Shown: one piece after another, positions 7,061 through 32,710 of the stretch
How the letters are laid out: every line of letters starts with the position of its first letter
How positions within the stretch are numbered: position 1 is the first letter of the stretch
Source: a virus
Lineage: Duplodnaviria > Heunggongvirae > Uroviricota > Caudoviricetes
Virus record (IMG/VR): IMGVR_UViG_2711768052_000004
Location: 1 to 32,710 of that record
DNA length: 32,710 bases
Direction: 5' to 3' (one strand)
Notes under the pieces: generated by a model
What the model saw: only the letters and a program-made list of their open reading frames with translations
What the model was told of the DNA's origin: nothing
The model's database searches: none
Program-made: the position numbers and the translations under genes

Positions 7061-8500
7061 CTATGATTCACCATTTACCCTTTTATTCTCAGAGCAATAT
7101 AACCATTCAGAAACATTAATTATAGCCTCCGGATGCGAGTGTGTTGAGTGTATTAATATACCATCATTCTGTGGAGCAAATTTAATAACTTTATGATCTC
7201 CAGCTGGAGTTTCAGATGATGCAATAAAAACTTCCGGGCAAAATATTAATCGCAAATCTCCATAAGCTATGGCCTTAGCTACAGCCAACCAAAATGAAAA
7301 AATCGCAACTGGTATTGCTGCAATAAGTAAAACATGAGGAACATCCTTTGATGGTTTCAACCTTTGCCAAATGTGAGAAATAGAAGTTAATACAAAGCTT
7401 ACTAATAATACTATAATCCATGATTTTTCTTCAGGATAGAAGAACCATATTAATACACTCATGGAAATATAAAATAGGTAGCTTAAAACTGCTGACCAAT
7501 GTGTTAGCTTTTTATGACTTACTTGAGCTTTTTTTAGCTGGGAAAGAATTGCAAAACATCCTTCGTGAAGTGAACTTACAAATCTTAGGCCTGAATCGGC
7601 TTCATCACCAATTGCGTGATAAATTTCAACATTCCTAAAATCAACCGCTTCACAGTGCTCGCCACTCTCAACTTCCTGCAAAAATTCTTTTTTATATTTT
7701 TTGGAGATTATAATTTCTGCAAATATTGAAACAAAAAAAATTACTGCTGCATAATTAATATTATATAGATTCAAAGGTACAAAAAATACTGCAAGTAACA
7801 ATTGAATGGCCAAAGTTCCGCTAATATCAATAAGATTAATTAAAGCACCTGACGTTCTTTTTATCCTACGTCGAAAGATGAACGGTGGTGACAAAAGACA
7901 TACGCCTTGAATTTTTTTTGCAATATCACTTCGTAAATAAGACATTTCTCTTACAATAGCTGCCCCATGGCTATGTGCAATAATATAATTGTATTTTGCA
8001 GGAGAGTTATCAATATGCATTCCTAATTGATATGCCGCTTGTTTACGAGAGGATGCAGAGTTTTTGCCATCCCATTTAAATCGAGATATACCAATATTGG
8101 GATTCCTTGAGTTAATTGATTTGCACATTTTTGACTCAGGTTGTGTCCAAGATGCATTCGTCTCGAATGTTCCATGAACAAGGTGAACAATAACATCTTC
8201 TGATTCAGCATTAGCAATATCATTCACGGTTGTTGTTTTAGTCGAGTGGAATATAAAACGCCATGCCGTTGAAATCCCTTTTTGCCAGACAACATAATGG
8301 ACGAGTGCAACGATTAGTATTATTGCGACTGGAATAGTTACAAGGCCTATGGAAATAGTTTTAATTATATACTGAAGAACTCCTTTATTATGGGTGAAAA
8401 AATAATATGCTACAGAGGAAATAAAGAGCACTAGCATAGCCAACATTATCCCAGACAAGCCAAATAATATAATATATTTAATAAAATCGTGATTTCCCAT
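7061..8500 (-). CDS. Cargo protein (479 aa): polytopic membrane protein with a lipase/esterase-like domain; candidate defence effector
   Basis: Long AT-rich ORF in the G-FI slot; about seven hydrophobic helices by eye; soluble segment carries VHLVHGTFE and IIAHSHGAAIV (an A-x-S-x-G nucleophile-elbow-like pentapeptide); AAGG RBS upstream of ATG at 8498-8500. Confidence 0.8.
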   Translation of the reverse strand: MGNHDFIKYIILFGLSGIMLAMLVLFISSVAYYFFTHNKGVLQYIIKTISIGLVTIPVAIILIVALVHYVVWQKGISTAWRFIFHSTKTTTVNDIANAESEDVIVHLVHGTFETNASWTQPESKMCKSINSRNPNIGISRFKWDGKNSASSRKQAAYQLGMHIDNSPAKYNYIIAHSHGAAIVREMSYLRSDIAKKIQGVCLLSPPFIFRRRIKRTSGALINLIDISGTLAIQLLLAVFFVPLNLYNINYAAVIFFVSIFAEIIISKKYKKEFLQEVESGEHCEAVDFRNVEIYHAIGDEADSGLRFVSSLHEGCFAILSQLKKAQVSHKKLTHWSAVLSYLFYISMSVLIWFFYPEEKSWIIVLLVSFVLTSISHIWQRLKPSKDVPHVLLIAAIPVAIFSFWLAVAKAIAYGDLRLIFCPEVFIASSETPAGDHKVIKFAPQNDGILIHSTHSHPEAIINVSEWLYCSENKRVNGES

Positions 8501-8777: not shown

Positions 8778-9305
8778 TTATTGCGGCATTTCCGGCCATT
8801 CGGGATTTGCAGGATCCACACGACTGACCAGAACGCTGTAGCGTTCCCATGCTTCCAGTCGGCTGCGTTCCTCATCCGTCGCCATATTCAGCCTGACAGC
8901 GCGTTCCAGCGGCAAAATCACGGATTCAGCTTCGGAAAGTAAAGCTGCCTTTTGTGATTCTGCCTGTTGCTCCTGTTCATCTGCCGTATAAATCCGCTTA
9001 ATCACGGCACCATCCTTAAACATCCATTTACCTGAGTCATCAGCACGTCGGTTGGAGGTAATATCAGGAACCTCGACAACGCTGAAACCTTCAGGGTTAA
9101 GCGTTGAAGCATCTCTGGTGATGCCGACAATTATATTATTCTCGTCGTAAACAATCTTTATCGTGTCTTCCTGAAAATTACTTACTTCCTCATACCAGTT
9201 TTTTCCCTCTTCGGACCATAACCAGATAACATCAAAATTTTTTGTCAGTTGATATTGGGCAACAGTTTTTGGATTACCCGCAGTAATATTTTTTAAATGC
9301 TGCAT
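8778..9305 (-). CDS. G: Tail fibre assembly protein gpG (175 aa)
   Basis: 175-aa ORF immediately downstream of H, as in P2. Confidence 0.88.
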
Positions 9306-9308
9306 AAA

Positions 9309-11354
9309 TTACACCTGTGCGACGTTATACCATGTGCCATTGATGTATTTTTGTATTGGCCTGAATACTGCGGGGTCATCACCATCGACTTCACCGACAA
9401 TACCAAGCCCGGTAATTACGTGCCCTGCTTTCTCATACATCACCCCTTTCTGCATGGTCTGGACAACACGTGTGCCAAGTCTGATATCTCTCACATAGCG
9501 GGAATCAAAGTTACCGTAATCCGAGGGATTAACACGCCCCGTAATATTTATGGTCTTATTACTTTGAATGCTTCCGGAAACAAAGCGCATAACATGGACG
9601 TTATTAGCATAAACATCCAGATTACCATCGCCATTTTGTTTAAATCCGGTGTCGTTATCACCAAGAACAATAGAGTTCCCACCCAACGCGTTATTCGTGC
9701 CAAGTGCCAGCCCGCCATCAATCCTGGCACCATTACCAACAGACACAACTCCTGTTCTTAAGTTGATGCCGAATGGCCTTAATGGCCCAATATCTCCATT
9801 TTCACCCTCATTTTCTCGTGTAGGAATGATATACAGGTTTTCTTCAGAACGGCGAAAAATAGCACCAAAAGATGAATTAAATATCCTCAGCGCATTGACT
9901 GTAGATATTTTTACTTCACTACTGAAAAGGGCTTTAACAAGAACATACAGAGCATCCCATTTAAGATTCATCAGGTCTTTTGTTGTGGTGCTCTGGCGAC
10001 TTCTCCATTTGAAATATTCATTGCCGTTGTCACCTGTTTCAAACCACATATATGAATCAGTATCGCTGTCGGCATCATTTTTAAATCCAATCTTTGCCCA
10101 GTCAGTATTTCGAATCCAGGCAAGGATTGAGTCGTTTTCAAAAGTAAGCCCGCCGGACAAGGTATCGCCATTTTTTTGCACGGCGTTCCCGGCCCTGTTT
10201 ACCGTTTCCTGTAAACCGAGATATTCGATAACGGCGGCAACGGTCGATTTAGCCAGAATATCCCGCCCGACTTTTGTCAGGGTCGCCAGGCTGGCAACAT
10301 CATTCCCCGTAAAATACGGAAACCTGTCTGCCGCAGTAGCAAGCCCCGCCAGCGCCGTCAAAGTGGCATCTTTCGGTTGCTTACCCGCAAGCGCATTAGT
10401 CATGGTGGTAGCAAAATTCGGGTCATTGCCCAGCGCCGCCGCCAGCTCGTTCAGCGTATTCAGTGCGTCAGGCGACGAGTCTACAAGGGCGGCAATCGCG
10501 GCCATAACGAAAGCCGTGTTTGCGATCTGAGTATTATTCGTTCCCTGTCGCGCAGTTGGCGTCGTTGGCGTTCCGGTCAGTGCAGGGCTGTTTAATGGCG
10601 CTTTCTTGTTCGTTTCATCCATTACCGTCTTAACGGCTTTTGGTGTTGCGGCGAGCGTTTCAGACATGCTGTTGGTCGCACTACTTAGCTGGACAAGACC
10701 TTTTCGCGCTGTGGTAGCGTCCTGTGCGGTATATTTCCCGTTAGCAAGGTCATATGCGGCCTTAACCGCTTTCGGCGTTGCGGCCAGTGTTTCAGACGTG
10801 CTGTTGGTCGCATTGCTTAACTGAGTAAAACCTTTTGCGGTCAGCGAGGCGTCCGGGTGACGTCGTGACTGTTCATGCTCTGCAATTTTGTCATCAACGT
10901 AATCCTGCGTCGCCATCACCGTTGTGGTGTCAATGGTCAGCTCCACTGAGGCCACACTGCTGACGATGATGACCATGCGACAGGTCTGCGAACGCCCTGA
11001 GCCTTCGGCAAGAGCTGGCTTATAACTTTCGGCCATGTTCGCCACGGCAATTAACGTTCCCGCATCATCGTACAGGCCAAGCTCACGCATCCAGAAGCCG
11101 CCCACCTCCGGCGGAATAACCAGCTCTGCGATAATATAATTACTGTTTCGTTTGTCCTGGCTGATTTTGTTCAGCGCATGTCGCCAGACTTCGTGGATAA
11201 GCCCGGTCTGTCCGGCATCCGGGACAGGCAATTTACCACCGCCATCCCCGACGGCCATCGTGGTAATGTTGACCTTCCGCCCTCCCGGTGCGGTTGCCGC
11301 TGCCAGCTTTGCTGCACCGGCAGTGGTGATAACGGTTTTGAATTTTGTGCTCAT
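9309..11354 (-). CDS. H: Tail fibre protein gpH (681 aa)
   Basis: 681-aa ORF rich in Ala/Thr/Gly/Asn with a repeated module; between I and G as in P2. Confidence 0.9.
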   Translation of the reverse strand: MSTKFKTVITTAGAAKLAAATAPGGRKVNITTMAVGDGGGKLPVPDAGQTGLIHEVWRHALNKISQDKRNSNYIIAELVIPPEVGGFWMRELGLYDDAGTLIAVANMAESYKPALAEGSGRSQTCRMVIIVSSVASVELTIDTTTVMATQDYVDDKIAEHEQSRRHPDASLTAKGFTQLSNATNSTSETLAATPKAVKAAYDLANGKYTAQDATTARKGLVQLSSATNSMSETLAATPKAVKTVMDETNKKAPLNSPALTGTPTTPTARQGTNNTQIANTAFVMAAIAALVDSSPDALNTLNELAAALGNDPNFATTMTNALAGKQPKDATLTALAGLATAADRFPYFTGNDVASLATLTKVGRDILAKSTVAAVIEYLGLQETVNRAGNAVQKNGDTLSGGLTFENDSILAWIRNTDWAKIGFKNDADSDTDSYMWFETGDNGNEYFKWRSRQSTTTKDLMNLKWDALYVLVKALFSSEVKISTVNALRIFNSSFGAIFRRSEENLYIIPTRENEGENGDIGPLRPFGINLRTGVVSVGNGARIDGGLALGTNNALGGNSIVLGDNDTGFKQNGDGNLDVYANNVHVMRFVSGSIQSNKTINITGRVNPSDYGNFDSRYVRDIRLGTRVVQTMQKGVMYEKAGHVITGLGIVGEVDGDDPAVFRPIQKYINGTWYNVAQV
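10629..10825. repeat. Imperfect tandem direct repeat inside H (two units of about 65 bp, period 132 bp)
   Basis: 10629-10692 and 10761-10825 are near-identical; they encode KGFTQLSNATNSTSETLAATPKAVK and KGLVQLSSATNSMSETLAATPKAVK. Confidence 0.8.
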
Positions 11355-13148: not shown

Positions 13149-13774
13149 AGAGGACTCCCGGTTGTGCCGCCGCTGTCGCCGGGGTGTTTATGGGTATGCA
13201 GTACCTTACCGTTTGATGAGAGTTCACCGCCGGTGTGTTCAATGTTGCCGCGCATCGTCCCGCCCTTCTGCACTTCCAGCGTGCCGGTAATCAGCCTGTT
13301 GGTGCAGACCACCTCCGGTGTGTCCAGGGTGATGCGGGTTGATGCTTTCACCATGACCACCGGCACCGTGGCAGTAACAGAATCAGAAGCCGTCACGCTG
13401 GCCGTTTTAATTCCGCTTACCATGAGTGCACTGGTTTCGGGTTCATATTCAATCACCGCCCCGTCAGGGAAACGGATATGCAGGGCATCCGCCGACGCAG
13501 ACGGCGCGGGGTTATCGCCGGAATAAATCCCCGGCAGAACGAACGCCGTGTCGAGTTCACCACCCACGGCCAGAATCAGCACCTGTTCCCCCACGGAAGG
13601 TGCCCACCATGTGCGCGAACGCCCGGCGCGATGGGTCAGCCACTGAAGCCAGTCGGTGCACATGCCGCCGGTCTGCACACGGCAGCGACCGGCATTAAGG
13701 TCGGTTTCGACGATAATGCCAGTGCGAATCATATTGCGTATAAAGCGAAGAATTTCATTGTATTGTGCATTCAT
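13145..13774 (-). CDS. V: Baseplate spike/hub protein gpV (209 aa from the chosen start)
   Basis: ORF track gives 235 aa; the Met of MNAQYNEILRFIRNMIRTGIIVETDLNAGRC (ATG at 13772-13774) matches the conserved gpV N-terminal region; stop overlaps W start. Confidence 0.85.
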   Translation of the reverse strand: MNAQYNEILRFIRNMIRTGIIVETDLNAGRCRVQTGGMCTDWLQWLTHRAGRSRTWWAPSVGEQVLILAVGGELDTAFVLPGIYSGDNPAPSASADALHIRFPDGAVIEYEPETSALMVSGIKTASVTASDSVTATVPVVMVKASTRITLDTPEVVCTNRLITGTLEVQKGGTMRGNIEHTGGELSSNGKVLHTHKHPGDSGGTTGSPL

Positions 13775-13860
13775 TCGATAATAATGATTCTGTACAATCT
13801 CGAAGTAAATCACACCACGATTTCTGGTGCACAGAACAACAAGGGACAACAAAATCCATT
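13775..13860. promoter_or_regulatory. Compressed divergent control region: expected late promoter P_V plus the cargo-gene promoter
   Basis: 86-bp spacer between divergently oriented V and the plus-strand cargo gene; plus-strand TACAAT at 13796-13801; P_V placement is positional inference from P2. Confidence 0.35.
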
Positions 13861-14934
13861 ATGAGTACTTACTTTTTCTCGTCAGAAACAATGAAAGAAT
13901 TGTTCAAAGATTATCTGGTCTTTTTGAACACGCTGACTCCCAGCACAAACTTTGAATCAAACAGAAACAAAATAATTGCTCAAGCAATAAACTTCATTTC
14001 CGAAAACCCTGAAGATTGGGACAAAAAATCCCAGTACAACATTGCTATGATTGGCGACACCTTTAAAAGTTTCTTAAGAGAGAAGGGAGAAGATAACAAC
14101 AGCATCAACCTTATATTCACTTGCTTTTTTAGATTTATCATTGAACCAAGCATTCTCTCTCCGGAAATAGAGTCTCACTTTTCACCACTAAGAACCATCA
14201 AGGATTTTGCTCTGTATAACTATAATGAATTCGATGAGCGGAGCAGAGCACAGATAGACTTTTCTCTTAGAGAACTGCCATTAGCAATGGTTAAAGAAGT
14301 TTTAAGCTCCAGCAATGTTGACACATATAAAAAATACATTGATAGTTTAAACGAAGGGCGTCAATTTTTCGAAAAGTGCGACTCCTTCTTAAAGGAGCAA
14401 CATGCCAAAATAGAGTCAATTAAAGAGTCATTAAAAGGGTATGAGGTCGCATTTAATTTTGTTGGATTGTTTGAAGGCTTTAATTCACTTGGCAAAAAGA
14501 AAGAAAGTGAAATCATGCTATCAAGAATAATTCTTATCATCTTGGCTATAATCATTCCCTCCCCGCTGATATACTATGGAATGCATAAATTACCAGCTCT
14601 CGAAACGACAAATGCTGCCACATATTTTATGTCAGCACTACCTTTTGCATCAGTTACATTGATTTTCATGTATTACTTTAGAGTTGTACTGCTAAATCAT
14701 ATATCGTTACGAACTCAGATTATGCAAATAGAACTCAGAAAGAGCCTTTGTCAGTTCATTCAGAGTTATAGCGACTATTCCTCAGAGATAAGGAAAAACA
14801 ATCCGGAAGCGCTTTCAAAATTCGAAGACGTAGTATTTTCAAACATCATGCTATCCGATGATAAGATACCATCTACATTTGATGGCATTGAGCAAATAGC
14901 ATCGTTAATCAATTCATTAAAAAATGGAAAGTAA
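13861..14934 (+). CDS. Cargo protein (357 aa from ATG 13861): soluble N-terminal domain plus two predicted TM helices; function unknown
   Basis: AT-rich ORF on the opposite strand to the flanking late genes, in the S-V slot; hydrophobic IMLSRIILIILAIIIPSPLIYYGM and ATYFMSALPFASVTLIFMYYFRVVLL; start is uncertain (in-frame ATGs at 13765, 13861, 13891). Confidence 0.75.
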   Translation: MSTYFFSSETMKELFKDYLVFLNTLTPSTNFESNRNKIIAQAINFISENPEDWDKKSQYNIAMIGDTFKSFLREKGEDNNSINLIFTCFFRFIIEPSILSPEIESHFSPLRTIKDFALYNYNEFDERSRAQIDFSLRELPLAMVKEVLSSSNVDTYKKYIDSLNEGRQFFEKCDSFLKEQHAKIESIKESLKGYEVAFNFVGLFEGFNSLGKKKESEIMLSRIILIILAIIIPSPLIYYGMHKLPALETTNAATYFMSALPFASVTLIFMYYFRVVLLNHISLRTQIMQIELRKSLCQFIQSYSDYSSEIRKNNPEALSKFEDVVFSNIMLSDDKIPSTFDGIEQIASLINSLKNGK

Positions 14935-21410: not shown

Positions 21411-23183
21411 ATGACCATCACCACAGACACCACTCTTTTACACGACCCGCGTCGTCAGGCGGCGCTGCTGTACTGGCAGGGGTTTTCCGTGCCGCAGATT
21501 GCCGCCATGTTGCAGATGAAACGCCCGACGGTGCAGAGCTGGAAACAGCGCGACGGCTGGGACAGCGTTGCCCCCATCAGCCGTGTCGAAATGAGTCTGG
21601 AAGCGCGACTGACCCAGCTCATCATCAAACCGCAGAAAACCGGCGGTGATTTCAAGGAAATTGACCTGCTGGGACGCCAGATTGAACGACTGGCACGGGT
21701 AAACCGCTACAGCCAGACCGGCAACGAGGCAGACCTTAATCCGAACGTCGCTAACCGCAACAAAGGCGGGCGGCGCAAACCGAAAAAGAATTTTTTCAGT
21801 GACGAGGCCATCGAAAAGCTGGAGCAGATTTTCTTTGAGCAGTCTTTCGAATATCAGTTGTACTGGTATCGCGCCGGGCTTGAGCACCGCATCCGCGATA
21901 TCCTGAAATCCCGCCAGATTGGCGCAACGTTTTATTTTTCCCGCGAGGCGCTGCTGCGCGCCCTGAAAACCGGCCATAACCAGATTTTTCTGTCGGCCAG
22001 TAAAACGCAGGCGTATGTGTTCCGTGAATACATCATCGCCTTTGCCCGTCTGGTTGACGTTGACCTGACCGGTGACCCGATTGTCCTGGGCAATAACGGC
22101 GCAAAACTGATTTTTCTCGGCACAAACTCCAACACTGCGCAGAGCCATAACGGCGACCTGTACGTCGACGAGATTTTCTGGATCCCGAATTTTCAGGTGC
22201 TGCGTAAGGTGGCATCAGGTATGGCCTCACAGAGTCACCTGCGCTCGACCTATTTCTCCACCCCGTCCACGCTGGCGCACGACGCCTACCCGTTCTGGTC
22301 GGGTGAACTGTTCAACCGGGGACGCGCCAGCGCCGCCGAACGCGTGGAAATCGACGTCAGTCATAACGCCCTTGCCGGTGGGCTTCTCTGTGCAGACGGC
22401 CAGTGGCGGCAGATTGTCACCATTGAGGACGCCCTGAAAGGTGGCTGCACGCTGTTCGACATTGAACAGCTCAAACGCGAAAACAGCGCCGACGATTTTA
22501 AAAACCTGTTCATGTGTGAATTTGTTGACGACAAGGCGTCGGTGTTCCCGTTCGAGGAGTTGCAACGCTGCATGGTCGACACGCTGGAAGAATGGGAAGA
22601 CTATGCACCCTTTGCCGCCAATCCGTTCGGTTCCCGCCCGGTATGGATTGGTTACGACCCGTCACACCGTGGCGACAGCGCCGGATGCGTGGTGCTGGCA
22701 CCGCCGGTGGTGGCCGGTGGCAAATTCAGAATACTTGAGCGTCACCAGTGGAAAGGCATGGACTTTGCCACTCAGGCTGAATCCATCCGCAAACTCACCG
22801 AAAAATATAACGTCGAATACATCGGTATTGATGCCACCGGCCTCGGTGTCGGCGTGTTCCAGCTCGTGCGCTCGTTCTATCCCGCCGCGCGCGATATCCG
22901 CTACACGCCGGAAATGAAAACCGCAATGGTGCTCAAGGCAAAAGACGTTATCCGCCGTGGCTGTCTGGAATATGACGTCAGCGCCACCGACATCACCAGC
23001 TCGTTTATGGCTATCCGCAAGACCATGACCAGCAGCGGACGCAGTGCCACCTATGAGGCCAGCCGCAGCGAGGAAGCCAGCCACGCCGACCTCGCCTGGG
23101 CGACCATGCACGCCCTGTTAAATGAGCCACTCACCGCCGGTATCAGCACTCCGCTGACATCCACCATTCTGGAGTTTTACTGA
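21411..23183 (+). CDS. P: Terminase large (ATPase) subunit gpP (590 aa)
   Basis: ORF track gives 600 aa from 21381; ATG at 21411 (MTITTDTTLL) has GAGG upstream and gives 590 aa. Confidence 0.9.
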   Translation: MTITTDTTLLHDPRRQAALLYWQGFSVPQIAAMLQMKRPTVQSWKQRDGWDSVAPISRVEMSLEARLTQLIIKPQKTGGDFKEIDLLGRQIERLARVNRYSQTGNEADLNPNVANRNKGGRRKPKKNFFSDEAIEKLEQIFFEQSFEYQLYWYRAGLEHRIRDILKSRQIGATFYFSREALLRALKTGHNQIFLSASKTQAYVFREYIIAFARLVDVDLTGDPIVLGNNGAKLIFLGTNSNTAQSHNGDLYVDEIFWIPNFQVLRKVASGMASQSHLRSTYFSTPSTLAHDAYPFWSGELFNRGRASAAERVEIDVSHNALAGGLLCADGQWRQIVTIEDALKGGCTLFDIEQLKRENSADDFKNLFMCEFVDDKASVFPFEELQRCMVDTLEEWEDYAPFAANPFGSRPVWIGYDPSHRGDSAGCVVLAPPVVAGGKFRILERHQWKGMDFATQAESIRKLTEKYNVEYIGIDATGLGVGVFQLVRSFYPAARDIRYTPEMKTAMVLKAKDVIRRGCLEYDVSATDITSSFMAIRKTMTSSGRSATYEASRSEEASHADLAWATMHALLNEPLTAGISTPLTSTILEFY

Positions 23184-24217
23184 TGAGCAAGAAAAAAGGG
23201 AAAACACCGCAACCTGCGGCAAAAAAAATGACCGCCAGCGCCCCGAAAATGGAGGCATTCACCTTTGGTGAGCCGGTGCCGGTACTCGACCGCCGTGACA
23301 TTCTGGATTACGTCGAGTGCATCAGTAACGGCAGATGGTATGAGCCACCGGTCAGCTTTACCGGTCTGGCAAAAAGCCTGCGTGCTGCCGTGCATCACAG
23401 CTCACCGATTTACGTCAAACGCAATATTCTGGCCTCGACATTTATCCCGCATCCGTGGCTTTCCCAGCAGGATTTCAGCCGCTTTGTGCTGGATTTTCTG
23501 GTGTTCGGTAATGCGTTTCTGGAAAAGCGTTACAGCACCACCGGTAAGGTCATCAGACTGGAAACCTCACCGGCAAAATATACCCGCCGTGGCGTGGAGG
23601 AGGATGTTTACTGGTGGGTGCCGTCCTTCAACGAGCCGACAGCCTTCACGCCCGGCTCCGTGTTTCACCTGCTGGAGCCCGATATTAATCAGGAGCTGTA
23701 CGGCCTGCCGGAATATCTCAGCGCCCTTAACTCTGCCTGGCTGAATGAGTCGGCCACGCTGTTCCGCCGCAAGTATTACGAAAACGGCGCACATGCCGGA
23801 TACATCATGTACGTCACCGATGCCGTGCAGGATCGCAACGATATCGAAATGCTTCGCGAAAACATGGTGAAGTCGAAAGGCCGCAACAACTTTAAAAACC
23901 TGTTTCTCTATGCCCCGCAGGGGAAAGCCGACGGCATTAAAATTATCCCGCTCAGTGAAGTGGCGACGAAGGACGATTTTTTTAATATCAAAAAAGCCAG
24001 CGCCGCTGACCTGCTGGATGCGCACCGCATCCCCTTTCAGTTGATGGGCGGCAAGCCGGAGAACGTCGGGTCGCTGGGTGATATTGAGAAAGTGGCAAAG
24101 GTCTTTGTCCGCAATGAGCTTATCCCGCTACAGGACAGGATCCGCGAGATAAACGGCTGGCTCGGTCAGGAGGTCATCCGCTTTAAAAACTACTCACTGG
24201 ACACTGACAACGGCTGA
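23183..24217 (+). CDS. Q: Portal protein gpQ (344 aa)
   Basis: 344-aa ORF whose start overlaps the P stop. Confidence 0.92.
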   Translation: MSKKKGKTPQPAAKKMTASAPKMEAFTFGEPVPVLDRRDILDYVECISNGRWYEPPVSFTGLAKSLRAAVHHSSPIYVKRNILASTFIPHPWLSQQDFSRFVLDFLVFGNAFLEKRYSTTGKVIRLETSPAKYTRRGVEEDVYWWVPSFNEPTAFTPGSVFHLLEPDINQELYGLPEYLSALNSAWLNESATLFRRKYYENGAHAGYIMYVTDAVQDRNDIEMLRENMVKSKGRNNFKNLFLYAPQGKADGIKIIPLSEVATKDDFFNIKKASAADLLDAHRIPFQLMGGKPENVGSLGDIEKVAKVFVRNELIPLQDRIREINGWLGQEVIRFKNYSLDTDNG

Positions 24218-24222
24218 ACATC

Positions 24223-24244
24223 GCCGCCTGCGGGCGGCTTTTTT
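24223..24244 (+). terminator. Rho-independent terminator of the P-Q operon
   Basis: GCCGCC-TGCG-GGCGGC followed by TTTTTT, starting 6 nt after the Q stop. Confidence 0.75.
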
Positions 24245-24409
24245 ACACCCCGTCATCACGGCCTCACACGCTCACCACCGCACAAAACACCCCGCAGACA
24301 CACCAACGCCCCGGCAGGCCGACTAAATGCCATCACGACGCGCTCAGACGCAAAAAAACTGTCACTACCACGCCGTTACGTTGGCCACATAAAATGTGGC
24401 CAACTCCAG

Positions 24410-25411
24410 TTATAATAATTTGTCCAGCCTAGCTGAAACAATACCTAGAACAACTGTTGAAACTATATTTACCACCACTCTTAAAATACTCTTCTTTCGC
24501 TTCTTACTATATTCATCATACAACCTCTCATCACCCTTATTTAATACAATGTACGATGCTGGAGTATAACCATCAATTAATCTCTCTAGGCCTTCACCTA
24601 AATGCTCCGCTAACAATGGGATAATAGAAAACGCACCAAGAAAGAGCATTAAAAATTTTACTAACCTTTCTTTATCACCAATATCAATATATTCACCAAC
24701 ATTGTACAGTGCATAACTTAAAATCAATATAGAAAAAGAAAACCGCATAATCAGTGGAATTAAATACGATATCCTTTGAGCTTGCTGTATCAATGGTATT
24801 TTGTTTGTAACTCTTTGACATCCTTCAACCCATTCTTTAAATGCTTCGATAAAACCTCTAGCCACTACATAATCAGCATATTCAACAACTATTTCTGCTG
24901 AACTGGTGAGCATGAATGCAACAAAACGCCCCCTAATGAAAGGTGGTGCATCTTCTTCCATTTCTTTCTGCATAGCAATTCTTGATGCTAATTTAACAGT
25001 AACTTCATAGTGGTTAGGTAATGATGCCCCTGTCGATAAAATTGCAAAGTTATATTTTAAAATTACACTAATTGTTGGACTACTTCCCGCACTACTCGAC
25101 ATTGCAAACTTATCAAAAGAGGTAAACTGTTCCTTTCTATCTTTTGAATGTAAAATAGTTACCGTTTCATTTTTCGATATAATATTATGAACATCACACA
25201 ATTGATTTATTTTTTGATGAACGCTTCTTATCTCATCGATATTTATAAGTAAATTCTCAGAGGTTCTCTGCCTTATTGTTTCTGTTGTTCCCGTTATATG
25301 TTGATAAATTTGCTGATAAATACGAATGCTAGTATTAATATCCCGAGAAGCAGGTAACCCACTATTAACCCCATTATTTTTTTCATTTGACTCATCAATT
25401 ATAATACTCAT
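24410..25411 (-). CDS. Cargo protein (333 aa): soluble N-terminal domain plus three C-terminal TM helices; function unknown; candidate defence effector
   Basis: AT-rich ORF between the cos-like site and Q; AGGA 5 nt upstream of ATG at 25409-25411; hydrophobic ISYLIPLIMRFSFSILILSYALY, LVKFLMLFLGAFSIIPLLAEHL, ILRVVVNIVSTVVLGIVSA. Confidence 0.8.
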   Translation of the reverse strand: MSIIIDESNEKNNGVNSGLPASRDINTSIRIYQQIYQHITGTTETIRQRTSENLLINIDEIRSVHQKINQLCDVHNIISKNETVTILHSKDRKEQFTSFDKFAMSSSAGSSPTISVILKYNFAILSTGASLPNHYEVTVKLASRIAMQKEMEEDAPPFIRGRFVAFMLTSSAEIVVEYADYVVARGFIEAFKEWVEGCQRVTNKIPLIQQAQRISYLIPLIMRFSFSILILSYALYNVGEYIDIGDKERLVKFLMLFLGAFSIIPLLAEHLGEGLERLIDGYTPASYIVLNKGDERLYDEYSKKRKKSILRVVVNIVSTVVLGIVSARLDKLL

Positions 25412-25657
25412 TTTATTTCCTATAAAAACTTAACCAGCAAATTAAACAAAAAGAACACAAGGTTATTATTTAGCGTGCAACAACACGATTGCACAACCAA
25501 ATGCCACGTGTACGAATCTAACCATTCTCTTATATTAAATCAAGTCAATACAACCTAATAGACACATTTTTTATCGCAGTTATACACTTGGTTAACAATA
25601 TGCGGATAGTTACTCAAATCAAATTACATATATGACAAAATGAACAATTGCGCGCAG

Positions 25658-25676
25658 TGCTATCCCCGCCTCGCCT
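25658..25676. other. cos-like site (19-nt cohesive-end sequence)
   Basis: GTGCTATCCCCGCCTCGCC is the reverse complement of GGCGAGGCGGGGATAGCAC, an 18/19 match to the P2 cohesive end as I remember it (GGCGAGGCGGGGAAAGCAC). Confidence 0.65.
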
Positions 25677-25890
25677 GCCCGCTTTATGGGTCGGTTTTAA
25701 TGCAGGTGCACGAATACACCGGAGGCGCGCCGGCACTGGTGGCGCTCAGACGCAACAGGGGAGGAAAACGCATGCAATTGAATGCATTTCTAGGCACACC
25801 TAAAAATGAAAAAATGTTATGACAATTAATCATTTTAAACACACTGATTAAGGGTAGAATTCTCCTAGTAAAATCATAGAAAAACCGCTA

Positions 25891-26820
25891 TCAAACCAGG
25901 CTTTTGCCTTGCTTCATTTTTTTAGATGAGTCTAAAAATTTGAAATTATCATTAGATGAAAATATTCTTTCTGCGGTATGCCGAATGACTGAAGTATTGA
26001 AGACCGCAGCCTGCTCCTCATTACAACTGAATACACCCTCATGACCATCAAACTCGCCCGCCAAAAGAAGGTTTTTTGATACTGGGAACAAAACTAAAGT
26101 GTCTTTTACACCAAACCCGGGGGAATAAGGGCCTCGTGCTAATTCAGGATTAGTCCACATTAAGCAAACTGGGTTATCTGAAGTTATAAATGACCCTTGC
26201 CCATCAGATATGGTCATAAGTGACCAGTTGCGTTGATGCAACAACTTGGTGATAACAGGTACACATTTCATTTCCATATCTATCATGAACTCTCTGATTA
26301 CATTGATTTCGAAATTATCCCCATCCACAAAATTTTTAATTTTTTCGTAAGCGAGATCATATGGCAAAGACTCACCCATTTCTTTCTCATAAGCTAATTT
26401 ACAATCGTCCCAACGCTCAGCCGAACTAACTGAGGATTTCATGATAAACTTTGCTATTTGTTTCAATGGAGATGATAAATGTTCTCGCTGAGCAGGCGTA
26501 CGTATTGCCAATAAGGAAATAAACTCCAGAATAACATCTTTGGTTTCGCCTGAAAACTCGCCCCCCTCCTCAAGTTTTCTTAAATGAGTAGCGACACTGC
26601 CTTCAAACTCTGCAAGAGAACTCTCGAGATAGTTTGGGTCAACTCCATCCAATTCTAATCGGTTGAAATCTCTAACCCCCCCGACATTGCGAGTATTACT
26701 CTCAAAAGTTTTGCGCTCCTTTAAATCTATTACAGTTAATTTTGATTTTTTCCCCCCATTACTTGTAAACCCTTTCAAATAACATTGGGATAAAAAATGA
26801 TGATGCCTTGCAACACTCAT
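25891..26820 (-). CDS. Cargo protein (309 aa from ATG 26820) with DUF4238-like N-terminal motif; candidate single-gene defence protein
   Basis: AT-rich ORF between A and the cos-like site (the P2 tin/old slot); N-terminus MSVARHHHFLSQCYLKGFT fits the H-x3-Q-x-YL-x2-F signature I associate with DUF4238; GGAG 6 nt upstream of the chosen ATG. Confidence 0.75.
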   Translation of the reverse strand: MSVARHHHFLSQCYLKGFTSNGGKKSKLTVIDLKERKTFESNTRNVGGVRDFNRLELDGVDPNYLESSLAEFEGSVATHLRKLEEGGEFSGETKDVILEFISLLAIRTPAQREHLSSPLKQIAKFIMKSSVSSAERWDDCKLAYEKEMGESLPYDLAYEKIKNFVDGDNFEINVIREFMIDMEMKCVPVITKLLHQRNWSLMTISDGQGSFITSDNPVCLMWTNPELARGPYSPGFGVKDTLVLFPVSKNLLLAGEFDGHEGVFSCNEEQAAVFNTSVIRHTAERIFSSNDNFKFLDSSKKMKQGKSLV

Positions 26821-26923
26821 ACTCAGCTCCGTTATGGCTATAATCGCATAAATAATAAGCACTTATATTGCAATCATCTAGTTAAATACACAATATTTAT
26901 GACTCCGAAATTTCATTAAATCA

Positions 26924-29095
26924 CTATTGATAGGTTTTACCAATTAGTGCCAGCTCGAAATGGATGCGTGGAATCTGCGAACGTTCAGCCTTTGTCATCC
27001 GCCCTGATGGCGCTATCTGGTACGGTTTTAATGGTTCGCAGTTTCTTTGTTGCCAATTCGGTCTCGGTGCACCATGTTTTAATGCACTCCTGAGCACCGT
27101 CACAACTTCCGGGTCATCCCATCCGATAACACCACTATCAACCAGATTTAACACCGCTGCGGCATGCTCAGACGGTGTAGGGTGCATAACCGGAACGTCA
27201 CCGCCGGTGAACTTTCCACAGTTATTGACAGGACTCCGAGGCGCGGCGATGCCGCTTTTTAAAGTCAAAGGCTCAACGACCGGAACTTTCGGCACAATGC
27301 GCCAGTCCGTCGTTCTGGTGATATGAATATGACGCGCGCCGAGATGCGGCGCGTAAATGCCGACCACTCTCTCGACTTCTTCCTCGTACTCGTTAACTTC
27401 ATCCGACGGACTACGGGCGACCCTGACAGTCTGACAATCGCGCGGGACATTTGCCCCACCCTGCGCGCTGATATACAACGCAAAATCACCACTGTCTGCG
27501 GCGGCGCGTGCAGCCTCGACTCGCTCGTCAAACTCATCAGCAATGCTGACGCCGCGAGGCAATTTTCGTAGTTCACGGTAAGCCCCCATTGTCGGCAGAC
27601 CAACCGTTTTAAATTGTGGGATGCGCCACGTTGACGCCCATGCGGTAACAGCCGCAGCAGTGTCTTTCAGCGGTCTGCCGGTATCGTTATCGAGCTGACC
27701 ATCCAGTGCATAGCCATCGATGTTTTTTGAGATGTATTTCGCGATATACCCCGCAGCACCGCCCTGGTTAAGGTGTTTTGCCTGAAAACGGTTTCGCGCG
27801 GCTCCTCTTTCGTCGCCATCCTCTTTGAGCGCATAGCGACGCATGATTTCGATAATCTGGTTACGCTGGCGTGGATTACAAAAAAGCATCATATGCCAGT
27901 GCGGCGTTCCGTCGTGGTGTGGCTCGACGACACGCAAACCGTAGACCTGTAAATCATTATCCTTGAATGCCGTGCGCATCAGGCTCCAGATATGGCAGAG
28001 ATAACGCTGCGCATCCTTTGGATTAAATGCCTCATCGTTCCAGCCGTGATTTAGCTGGACGGTTTTACTTTCGCCTTTTCCGACCTGACGTGTCGGGTGA
28101 TACTTTGACGGCGCGGTAAGCGTGATAAACATCCCCACATCACCCTCTGCGGCGGCGTAACGCTCAATACCGGCAATGGTGTTCATCAGCTCCATCCGGC
28201 GAATTTCAGGATTAGAAATACTGCCCATCACCTTACTGATAAGGTCGATGCGCTCGCCGGTTTCCCTGTTTTCAAGGTCACACGATTTAAGAAATTCCAG
28301 ATTTGCCTGGCGGCGTGCACGCACATCACGAATGGCATGTTTACTGGCATAAGGAGAACGGTCTTTATTCACCTCCCCGACAGCAATCAGTAACGCCTCA
28401 TGCCAGCGCATACGCTGGCCTTTGAGCTGATGAGTCCACCACTCATCGTTAAACAGACGGGCAATGGCAGAATATGCCTGCCTCGTGGTCATCTGTCCTT
28501 TACGGTATTTTTTCCAGTAAAGCGGGGAAATATTGAAAGCACGTGCAGCGCCAGCAACATGACCATAGAGGTGAGCCTGCGCCTCATCCGTAAACAGCGA
28601 TTCTTTTTCGCCATGTGCATCCACCCAGGCATCGCTGAGTTCCTCATACATCATGAAAAGCTGCGATGAGATACGGGCGGCAAACTTTTTCAGCTCCTTG
28701 TCATTCATTCCCGGCAGGCGCGCATAGTGGTCACGCTCTGCCAGAAACAGCAACGACGCGTCGGTGTTCATTTCATGGCGCTGATTCACACGCTCAATGC
28801 GCGGCCATAAACGACGCTGAAAAGTGGATGTGAGGAAATAAAACCCGTGCACCGGGCTTTTATTGCGCCGGATGTAGTCATAGCGTGAAGTAAACAGCGA
28901 GCGCAAAAAGTAAGGCAGGCGGTTAATCGTGGATAAAACACCTTGCACCTGACGCATCTCGTCACGTGTAAGGGGTCTTTCGCGCCCGACGGCCTCGCGT
29001 GGCGCGTTCCATGCATAAGCACCGGTAAACGTCTCACCGGTGCCTGCGGCAAATGCTGACGGAGGGACAAAATGCCCGGAGGCTTTAACGGTCAT
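26924..29095 (-). CDS. A: Replication initiation protein gpA (rolling-circle nickase family)
   Basis: 737-aa ORF; likely start at the Met of MTVKASGHFVPP (ATG at 29093-29095), with 29137 as an alternative; position at the end of the early operon. Confidence 0.88.
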   Translation of the reverse strand: MTVKASGHFVPPSAFAAGTGETFTGAYAWNAPREAVGRERPLTRDEMRQVQGVLSTINRLPYFLRSLFTSRYDYIRRNKSPVHGFYFLTSTFQRRLWPRIERVNQRHEMNTDASLLFLAERDHYARLPGMNDKELKKFAARISSQLFMMYEELSDAWVDAHGEKESLFTDEAQAHLYGHVAGAARAFNISPLYWKKYRKGQMTTRQAYSAIARLFNDEWWTHQLKGQRMRWHEALLIAVGEVNKDRSPYASKHAIRDVRARRQANLEFLKSCDLENRETGERIDLISKVMGSISNPEIRRMELMNTIAGIERYAAAEGDVGMFITLTAPSKYHPTRQVGKGESKTVQLNHGWNDEAFNPKDAQRYLCHIWSLMRTAFKDNDLQVYGLRVVEPHHDGTPHWHMMLFCNPRQRNQIIEIMRRYALKEDGDERGAARNRFQAKHLNQGGAAGYIAKYISKNIDGYALDGQLDNDTGRPLKDTAAAVTAWASTWRIPQFKTVGLPTMGAYRELRKLPRGVSIADEFDERVEAARAAADSGDFALYISAQGGANVPRDCQTVRVARSPSDEVNEYEEEVERVVGIYAPHLGARHIHITRTTDWRIVPKVPVVEPLTLKSGIAAPRSPVNNCGKFTGGDVPVMHPTPSEHAAAVLNLVDSGVIGWDDPEVVTVLRSALKHGAPRPNWQQRNCEPLKPYQIAPSGRMTKAERSQIPRIHFELALIGKTYQ

Positions 29096-29360
29096 ATGAG
29101 CCAAAAGCCTCTGAACAACGCTTGCTGAGTTGCTCAACCTGCGCGTTTAAATCAGCAAAAGACTTTGCGCTTCCGGTCAGAATATCGTGATGCATCAGGC
29201 CGGAAACGAGCTGGCTTAATTTCGGGTAATAACCAACCACCGCCAGCCATTCCTGACCGGCGTTTTTACCGCTTTCCGCTCTCTTTTTCTCGTGGAGAAT
29301 AAACTGAAAGCTGTCACTGGTAACGACATAACGTTCGCCAATTTCAATACGAATACTCAT
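29085..29360 (-). CDS. Early-operon small protein (91 aa), P2 orf83-position analogue
   Basis: ORF translationally coupled to the upstream ORF (ATGA overlap) and overlapping the A start. Confidence 0.6.
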   Translation of the reverse strand: MSIRIEIGERYVVTSDSFQFILHEKKRAESGKNAGQEWLAVVGYYPKLSQLVSGLMHHDILTGSAKSFADLNAQVEQLSKRCSEAFGSYDR

Positions 29361-31714: not shown

Positions 31715-32710
31715 ATGTCTATTAAAAAGCTCGATGATGGTCGTTATGAAGTGGACGTCAGACCGCAGGGTGCAGATGGAAAACGTATCAGGCGGAAATT
31801 TAAAACTAAAGGTGAAGCTCAAGCATTCGAACGTCATGTACTGGTTAACTACCACAACAAAGAGTGGCTGGAGAAGCCAGCCGACCGCCGAACTCTTACA
31901 GAGTTGTTAGGCAGATGGTGGATATATCACGGAAAATCACATGAGCGTGGAGATATTGAACGGGGGCGTTTGACGACAATAATCGCCAAATTTGCAGAAA
32001 TGGGAGTGTCCAGAGCTGACCAGCTAACAAAGAAAACGATAACTGATTATCGCGTTGTAATGATGAACGATGGTCTAAAACCAGCCAGCGTAAATCGGCA
32101 TCTGGCAATAATGAGCGGGATGTTCACCAAGTTAATTGACGCCGGTGAATACCATTCTCACAACCCGTTCCGTGAGGTTAAGCGATTACGTGAAGCTGTT
32201 ACAGAAATGGCTTTTTTGTCCAGTGAAGAGATTACACGGCTGTTATCCATGCTCGATGGTGATGAATTAAATGCGACTCTGGTCTGCCTTTCTACTGGTG
32301 GACGCTGGAGTGAAGTGTCTAATTTAAAAGCTGAACACATCATTAACCAGATGGTTACGTTTATGAAAACTAAAAACGGAAAGCGCAGGACAATTCCCGT
32401 TTCGCAGGACCTGATTAAACGGATCAAGACCAAAAACTCAGGCAGGCTTTTTAATGCCAGTTACTACAAAGTGCGCAACGCTCTCAGGGAAGTAAAACCC
32501 GATTTACCTGACGGACAGGCAGTGCATGTTTTGAGGCATACATTTGCCACACATTTTATAATGAATGGAGGTAACATAATCACATTGCAGCGCATCCTGG
32601 GTCATTCTAACATTCAGCAAACTATGACCTACGCACACTTTGCACCGGATTTCTTACAAGATGCTGTGACTCTTAACCCGGTGTCAGGAATGTCCATAAT
32701 GCGTCCATAA
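31715..32710 (+). CDS. int: Tyrosine integrase (331 aa)
   Basis: Start MSIKKLDDGRYEVDVRP with GGAGGG RBS; C-terminal HxLRHTFATH...Y catalytic-region motifs of tyrosine recombinases; downstream of C as in P2. Confidence 0.92.
   Translation: MSIKKLDDGRYEVDVRPQGADGKRIRRKFKTKGEAQAFERHVLVNYHNKEWLEKPADRRTLTELLGRWWIYHGKSHERGDIERGRLTTIIAKFAEMGVSRADQLTKKTITDYRVVMMNDGLKPASVNRHLAIMSGMFTKLIDAGEYHSHNPFREVKRLREAVTEMAFLSSEEITRLLSMLDGDELNATLVCLSTGGRWSEVSNLKAEHIINQMVTFMKTKNGKRRTIPVSQDLIKRIKTKNSGRLFNASYYKVRNALREVKPDLPDGQAVHVLRHTFATHFIMNGGNIITLQRILGHSNIQQTMTYAHFAPDFLQDAVTLNPVSGMSIMRP

Follow-up and report, generated by a model that had tools for sequence, protein, structure and literature searches.

A mobile cassette beside cos in a P2-like prophage encodes a predicted membrane protein of a widespread uncharacterised family, a candidate single-gene phage-defence module

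The gene under study lies on the minus strand of the window, the 32,710-nucleotide stretch of DNA analysed here. The ORF list places it at 24410-25411, with its ATG at 25411 and its stop codon at 24410-24412, and it encodes a protein of 333 amino acids (Table 1). The GC content around this ORF was 0.31-0.34, compared with ~0.55 in the phage backbone. The protein is identical to WP_053285577 (strain STN0717-20), and WP_000022316 is a 99.7% variant of it; all database names for the protein and its relatives are "hypothetical protein". A non-coding, AT-rich stretch of 245 bp separates the ATG from the cohesive-end sequence. The ORF, the AGGA ribosome-binding site and an AT-rich upstream region of about this length had all been described in the first-pass annotation, and each was found in its place by sequence and GC content. 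Pattern scans for promoters and terminators returned nothing above chance, and the promoter of the gene was thus inferred rather than located. The hairpin that had been described past the stop codon is real, but its size had to be corrected: instead of a 9-bp stem at 24381-24405, it has a perfect 11-bp stem (24380-24390 paired with 24394-24404) closed by a 3-nt loop, with a folding energy of -20.2 kcal/mol (z = -2.6). It is not followed by a U-run, indicating that it is no canonical intrinsic terminator, and the pattern scan did not report one there. The cassette (24359-25649) contained no further ORF of note. A retron was also looked for, and neither an RVT domain in the 333-aa protein nor a matching RNA family in an Rfam search of 24200-25900 was found.

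Table 1. Features of the cassette, the encoded protein and the surrounding genes (positions in the window).
Feature	Position	Strand	Remark
Inserted AT-rich cassette, 1,291 bp	24359..25649	.	Replaces ~21 bp of P2 backbone
333-aa protein CDS	24410..25411	-	Hypothetical protein in RefSeq
AGGA ribosome-binding site	25418..25421	-	6 nt 5' of the ATG; read from the sequence
AT-rich upstream non-coding region	25412..25649	-	Presumed seat of the gene's own promoter
Hairpin inside the cassette	24380..24404	.	5 nt 3' of the stop codon
Cytoplasmic alpha/beta N-domain (predicted), residues 24-205	24797..25342	-	
TM helix 1 (predicted), residues ~214-237	24701..24772	-	Hydropathy (protein and family); modelled long helix
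TM helix 2 (predicted), residues ~249-271	24599..24667	-	Hydropathy; model
TM2-TM3 loop, residues 272-306	24494..24598	-	Conserved; cytoplasmic by the positive-inside rule
TM helix 3 (predicted), residues ~307-329	24425..24493	-	Hydropathy; model; conserved L-G-I-x-S
P2-type 19-nt cohesive-end sequence (cos), GGCGAGGCGGGGATAGCAC	25657..25675	-	Context, outside the cassette
Portal gene Q	23183-24217	+	Converges on the 333-aa ORF
DUF4238 gene, 323 aa	25891-26862	-	PADLOC DUF4238-Pers 1.8e-219; Pfam DUF4238 5e-39
Replication gene A	26924-29137	-	Beyond cos from the 333-aa gene

Alignment with the window showed that homology to pro483 and P2 stops at 24358 and restarts at 25650, indicating that the cargo is a 1,291-bp cassette comprising the ORF, its upstream region and the hairpin. 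The two homology arms are only ~21 bp apart in P2 and pro483, which bears out the earlier statement that the cos-to-Q interval is normally short. The right edge of the cassette lies 7 nt from the cohesive end and borders a 61-bp stretch (25650-25710) with 93% identity to P2. In length this stretch approximates the 55-bp cos core described in the literature as common to P2 and P4, and the same cos core was found in P2, pro483 and related prophages. The 333-aa gene therefore sits between A and Q of a P2-like prophage, a layout also seen in the E. coli records, and its placement in the A-Q variable region was confirmed by the gene layout and by the alignment with P2 and pro483.

Two perfect copies of a 14-nt direct repeat, GCGCTCAGACGCAA, lie on either side of the cos region, at 24340-24353 and 25742-25755. 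The backbone of pro483 contains near-copies of it (13-14 of 14 nt); in the P2 record, no right-hand copy was seen. The cassette shifts the left copy 1.3 kb away from cos; if these repeats matter for terminase recognition, the packaging of cassette-bearing prophages could be affected. Elsewhere in the window, a phage integrase ORF with Int_N and Phage_integrase domains (31715-32710, plus strand) ends at the last base, and two more AT-rich islands were noted. One of them, with a GC content of ~0.33, carries a 479-aa ORF (7061-8500, minus strand) immediately downstream of the genes for the tail fibre (9309-11354) and for tail-fibre assembly (8778-9305), a site that corresponds to the Z/fun-type second hotspot of P2-like phages. 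This ORF had no Pfam or PADLOC match, indicating another unannotated cargo gene. The other island (GC 0.33-0.36) carries a 389-aa ORF (13765-14934, plus strand), likewise with no Pfam or PADLOC match, as a third AT-rich cargo candidate of the prophage.

We found the cassette in 10 of 5,426 complete E. coli genomes, with all copies at least 99.6% identical, whereas the surrounding region was matched at least in part by 1,591 of the same genomes. In E. coli strain H9 the cassette is interrupted by IS1, and P2 and pro483 are devoid of it. The gene is thus not present in all P2-like phages, and it is cargo rather than core, as had been proposed. Its position beside cos and the portal gene is the sole point that speaks for a core phage function of the cos/Q module, be it packaging, structural or lysis. 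Against such a function, P2, pro483 and 50,697 phage records lack the gene, and of the 1,591 E. coli genomes with a match to the surrounding region only 10 carry it; its product matched no structural family in PHROG or Pfam and no fold in BFVD, so that no homology to a structural or packaging protein emerged. The probability of a core function is close to nil, and the distribution of the gene refutes it.

Across cos from the cassette, the window holds a DUF4238 gene, which is adjacent to the 333-aa gene and co-oriented with it. The ORF called at 25891-26862 starts ~14 aa upstream of the profile start, and the true start may be an internal ATG. Adjacency and orientation would suit a two-gene system in which the 333-aa and DUF4238 proteins act together across cos, and the pair appears in Rousset's table as "DUF4238 + hypothetical". 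However, DUF4238 is known as a single-gene system that protects against T7 when cloned alone (Rousset et al. 2022, PMC9122126), which speaks against a second component. The 333-aa protein itself gave no DUF4238 domain match. The DUF4238 gene occurs without the cassette in at least 14 complete E. coli genomes. Conversely, all 10 cassette-bearing complete genomes diverge from the window just past cos, where the two genomes inspected encode a 305-aa hypothetical protein (MS 16-3) and a 783-aa AAA ATPase (STN0717-20), and DUF4238 never adjoins the homologues elsewhere (28 loci). The different cargo beyond cos, together with the occurrence of DUF4238 without the cassette, indicates two independent modules that recombine around cos. 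A two-gene system, which we regard as extremely improbable, is refuted by this independent assortment.

Hydropathy analysis detected three hydrophobic segments in both the 333-aa protein and the family average. Hydropathy and the structural model agreed on a soluble N-domain of ~205 aa followed by three predicted TM helices, the architecture that the first-pass annotation had read from the sequence. No signal peptide was found in the 333-aa protein and the TM2-TM3 loop contains nine K/R residues, which together predict an N-in, C-out topology. This loop carries E276, D280 and the motif S-Y-x-x-L-N-K-G-D-E, followed by the basic run KKRKK. The TM1-TM2 loop, predicted to be periplasmic, is ~11 residues long and is the least conserved part of the protein.

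In the family alignment, the N-terminus "MS.IIE" is common to most members. Among 236 sequences, residues Q33, Y36, T40, E44, Q70, Y135, S143, D180, Y181, A184, W194, G293 and D294 were at least 95% conserved, and those conserved at 85-95% include K67, F96, S98, F99, F102, Y120, Y178, R185, S215, E276, S286, Y287 and N291. Mean conservation over the same 236 sequences was 0.56 for the N-domain and 0.54 for the TM2-TM3 loop, and it was 0.34-0.39 for the TM helices and 0.28 for the TM1-TM2 loop. Essentially every constrained residue is thereby predicted to face the cytoplasm.

This distribution of conserved residues bears on non-abortive superinfection exclusion, in which genome entry would be blocked at the inner membrane and the cell would not be killed. 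P22 SieA, T4 Imm and HK97 gp15 block the entry of incoming phage genomes without killing. A prophage-encoded, predicted inner-membrane protein with its own expression signals fits such a role, and the exclusion genes tin and old are known from the locus. In the 333-aa protein, however, the conserved parts are nearly all on the predicted cytoplasmic side and the short periplasmic loop is poorly conserved; there was also no PHROG match to a known exclusion family, and many homologues lie outside prophages. Since nothing conserved is predicted to face the periplasm, entry exclusion is disfavoured, and we consider it improbable.

The AlphaFold model had a pLDDT of 77.6 and a pTM of 0.66 for the whole protein, and a pLDDT of 77.2 and a pTM of 0.71 for residues 24-206. 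The modelled N-domain is a six-stranded antiparallel sheet with flanking helices, and the modelled C-terminal part consists of three helices of ~36 residues each; between helices 2 and 3, the conserved S-Y-(I/L) forms a short strand. Structure comparison of the model placed the N-domain fold in the generic TBP-like/helix-grip sandwich. So generic a modelled fold does not in itself point to sensing, and "sensor" denotes a putative role of the N-domain throughout. A BFVD structure search returned nothing with E ≤ 0.001, and a PDB sequence-profile search returned 0 matches at E ≤ 10.

Searches of family and defence databases agreed with the earlier impression that the 333-aa protein has no recognised motif: Pfam, NCBIfam, PHROG, PADLOC and the PDB contain no entry that matches it. 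The best Pfam match, DUF3894, scored 18.6 bits, which is under the 25-bit cut-off, and fell on a TM helix. NCBIfam gave no match, the best PHROG E value was 0.23, and none of the 5,027 models of PADLOC-DB v2.0.0 matched the protein at E ≤ 1. When 40 family members were searched, no consistent Pfam match was obtained, and PADLOC models produced only scattered matches with E ≥ 0.007.

A word-indexed search retrieved 197 full-length relatives from Gamma- and Betaproteobacteria, with Pfam domains in none of them. Comparison of the N-domain profile with 1.84 billion cluster representatives yielded 707 matches at E ≤ 0.001, of which 488 had E ≤ 1e-10; the family size is accordingly given as 707 clusters at 50% identity. 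Nearly all of these matches have a length of 320-345 aa and carry the domain in the same place, and distant members (down to 21% identity) retain the hydrophobic segments and the motifs. A search for the C-terminal TM module on other N-domains gave only 7 short fragments, indicating no sign of domain shuffling. Judged by their sequences, these proteins form a large, widespread family with one fixed ~330-aa architecture, and the gene product is a predicted inner-membrane protein of this uncharacterised family. No member was found in 50,697 sequenced phage genomes, so the phage-linked examples are all prophages; the family is also nearly absent from plasmids.

Homologues with 41-56% identity were found in the cos-Q interval of P2-like prophages of Klebsiella, Serratia, Pantoea and Yersinia, in each of which cos was located. 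In the same elements Q is 64-81% and terminase 72-88% identical, compared with the lower identity of the 333-aa homologues. The gene order in Klebsiella is A - DinI - cos - X - Q, the Pantoea homologue adjoins a truncated portal gene, and the Yersinia homologue is in inverted orientation, in an interval that also holds an old-like AAA_15/AAA_21 gene. In the Yersinia enterocolitica prophage (loci L005-L007, 5728-7548) the latter gene encodes 606 aa, and the presence of two genes in this interval indicates that cargo on the cos-Q side is not limited to a single gene. The cos-Q slot was also occupied in four of five IMG/VR viral contigs, the fifth being a short contig with a partial copy only. 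The recurrent use of the cos-Q slot thus extends over five genera.

The homologues also occur in other contexts. In Shewanella putrefaciens (CP080634.1, annotated as a plasmid), a full-length homologue with 28% identity resides in a different temperate element, between integrase/early genes and a pair of repressor-type (HTH, Cro/CI) genes. It lies directly beside a CHAT protein (PDC-S66-like) and an HNH + DUF2326 pair (PDC-M68A/B), PDC-S66 and PDC-M68A/B being PADLOC candidate systems. At locus L044 (7983-12830), the homologue heads a run of CHAT, HNH endonuclease, small ORF and DUF2326. The Limnohabitans homologue is in an island with Fic, an HsdM fragment, DUF6602, NERD and toxin-antitoxin genes, the Acidovorax homologue is beside a split integrase, and the Enterobacter homologue is in a variable region with a TIR/SEFIR gene. 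Several lone homologues are surrounded by housekeeping genes and have neither defence nor mobile-element genes beside them: they were found between gyrB and topA, between xseA and sodB, and inside fatty-acid operons. Pfam and PADLOC searches of 145 neighbours from 20 non-P2 loci detected Fic/SoFic three times, NERD twice, type IV restriction, a DRT-type RT and transposases, and also many housekeeping genes. These neighbours are at most suggestive of an enrichment in defence and mobile-element genes.

All-against-all clustering of the neighbours identified no conserved neighbour gene in 28 loci, and a conserved partner gene was rejected on this basis. As the cassette otherwise lacks notable ORFs and known RNAs, the earlier description of a single-gene unit holds. 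The GC content of the gene was below that of its flanks in 41 of 41 loci, by 3-24 points (mean 14.5), indicating that it looks like recently acquired foreign DNA everywhere. The gene in the window is therefore a stand-alone, horizontally mobile accessory ("moron") cassette in a cos-proximal hotspot.

Disrupted copies of the gene carried a frameshift, an IS insertion, truncations or the IS1 insertion, as expected for a costly accessory gene. Such copies would also fit a membrane toxin, either one that serves the prophage as an addiction or stabilisation factor or one that belongs to a toxin-antitoxin pair with an unrecognised antitoxin, and small TM-helix modules are often toxic. Opposed to this reading are the 28 loci with no conserved adjacent ORF, together with a cassette in which no small ORF of note and no known RNA were found, and a large conserved N-domain unlike type I toxins. 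A toxin is very unlikely on these grounds. In Thauera phenolivorans (locus L027, 7956-10321), a 376-aa gene that resembles an IS element interrupts the homologue, and a second copy of this gene follows immediately downstream.

P2-like phages have their principal defence hotspot in the gpA-gpQ interval (PMC9122126, PMC9519451, PMC13586616), from which exclusion genes such as tin and old are known (PMC9122126). The cos-Q sub-interval was long ago proposed as an insertion hotspot and holds the retrons Ec67/Ec86 and ctx of phiCTX. WP_053285577 is listed in Table S5A of Rousset et al. 2022 under "DUF4238 + hypothetical" and "hypothetical + hypothetical", and was not among the systems cloned in that study. 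Elsewhere in the searchable literature and in the DefensePredictor supplements, neither the accession nor the peptide was found. The module had been called undescribed, and this stands for the family, which carries no annotation, but not for the locus, which is a published hotspot, nor for the protein, which is already listed; the novelty therefore lies in the family and not in the locus. Both the type of locus and the design of a soluble module with TM helices are familiar, and a further candidate in this hotspot will not surprise a specialist. What is new is the delineation of the family by size, fixed architecture, motifs, topology and fold class, the mapping of the cassette boundaries at cos and the independence from DUF4238, and the recurrence in the cos-Q slot described above.

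The best functional reading of the cassette is a candidate one-gene phage-exclusion (defence) module composed of a cytoplasmic sensor and a membrane effector, a reading that we consider about evenly balanced. It rests on the location, the architecture, and the compositional and turnover pattern, and these leave its chances at roughly half. In its favour, the cassette lies in the gpA-gpQ hotspot, occupies the cos-Q slot of retrons Ec67/Ec86 and is beside DUF4238, and some homologues elsewhere have Fic, NERD, type IV restriction, TIR, toxin-antitoxin or integrase genes around them. Against it, there was no PADLOC family match, several homologues are alone among housekeeping genes, the cos-Q slot also takes non-defence cargo (the ctx cytotoxin), the fold of the N-domain is generic, the family was not in 50,697 phage genomes, and no promoter was located by the pattern scan.

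Some of the same observations suit a non-defence moron, that is, a lysogenic-conversion or fitness factor such as a membrane-tethered lipid- or ligand-binding protein that would alter envelope physiology or stress tolerance. The lone chromosomal insertions, the lipid-binding-like fold matches and the precedent of ctx in the same slot all favour such a factor, which we nevertheless judge unlikely.

If the gene serves in defence, we infer the following course of events. The 333-aa protein would be expressed from the prophage in the lysogen and would insert into the inner membrane with its N-terminus inside, so that the ~180-residue alpha/beta domain and the TM2-TM3 loop face the cytoplasm. These two parts may jointly recognise a phage protein or a small ligand as the sign of infection. 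Detection would then switch the three-helix membrane module, which is probably oligomeric, to compromise the inner membrane, and the resulting membrane damage would abort the infection and thereby protect the lysogen population and the resident prophage. This specific abortive-membrane mechanism is less likely than the defence reading itself.

A broader proposal is that the protein is the founding member of a new stand-alone anti-phage family, in which a hitherto unrecognised TBP-like cytoplasmic sensor and a three-helix membrane effector are joined via the conserved S-Y-x-x-L-N-K-G-D-E loop. This family would comprise at least 700 clusters (50% identity), mainly from Gamma- and Betaproteobacteria, and would spread as a one-gene cassette, with repeated insertion into the cos-Q slot of P2-like phages and into other moron sites of temperate phages. 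We put this proposal forward tentatively, with somewhat less than an even chance of being correct. A defence role would make the gene a single-gene system of compact size (1 kb) in which the sensor fold is new, would assign a function to several hundred unannotated clusters from clinical Enterobacterales and environmental Proteobacteria, and would make the cos-portal slot worth mining separately from the better-known tin/old side of cos. If the role is not defence, the gene still encodes a conserved, always-foreign, prophage-carried membrane protein with no known function.

Among known systems, the cargo of the gpA-gpQ interval (old, tin, Rst_DUF4238, DprA-PRTase, PD-T4/PD-lambda and, in cos-Q, retrons Ec67/Ec86) shares its niche with the 333-aa cassette. 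Like these genes, the cassette is AT-rich, self-contained and variable among near-identical phages, and it recombines independently of the cargo on the other side of cos. Unlike them, the 333-aa protein has no sequence or domain relationship to any member of this group, nor does the cassette contain a reverse transcriptase or an ncRNA. The topology of the modelled N-domain resembles that of two-layer alpha/beta domains of the TBP-like/helix-grip type (SRPBCC, KA1, AdoMetDC-like). The resemblance goes no further, as identity is at most 15%, no catalytic or ligand-binding residues are in common and the model has a pLDDT of 77.

Membrane-acting abortive-infection effectors, namely RexB with RexA, Pycsar PycTM, CBASS Cap15/2TM and the 3TM partner of Rst_Hydrolase-3Tm, likewise combine a soluble cytoplasmic module with a few TM helices and are found in phage or defence hotspots. 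In contrast to them, the 333-aa protein consists of one polypeptide and lacks a partner cyclase, sensor or hydrolase, and it matches none of their models. Its N-domain is not of the cNMP-binding, SAVED or beta-barrel type, and membrane damage by it is presumptive. P22 SieA/SieB, T4 Imm and HK97 gp15 are, like the 333-aa protein, prophage-borne inner-membrane proteins with their own expression signals. Compared with these, the 333-aa protein gave no PHROG match, has minimal and unconserved predicted periplasmic exposure, and is much larger, with a conserved 180-residue domain that is predicted to be cytoplasmic.
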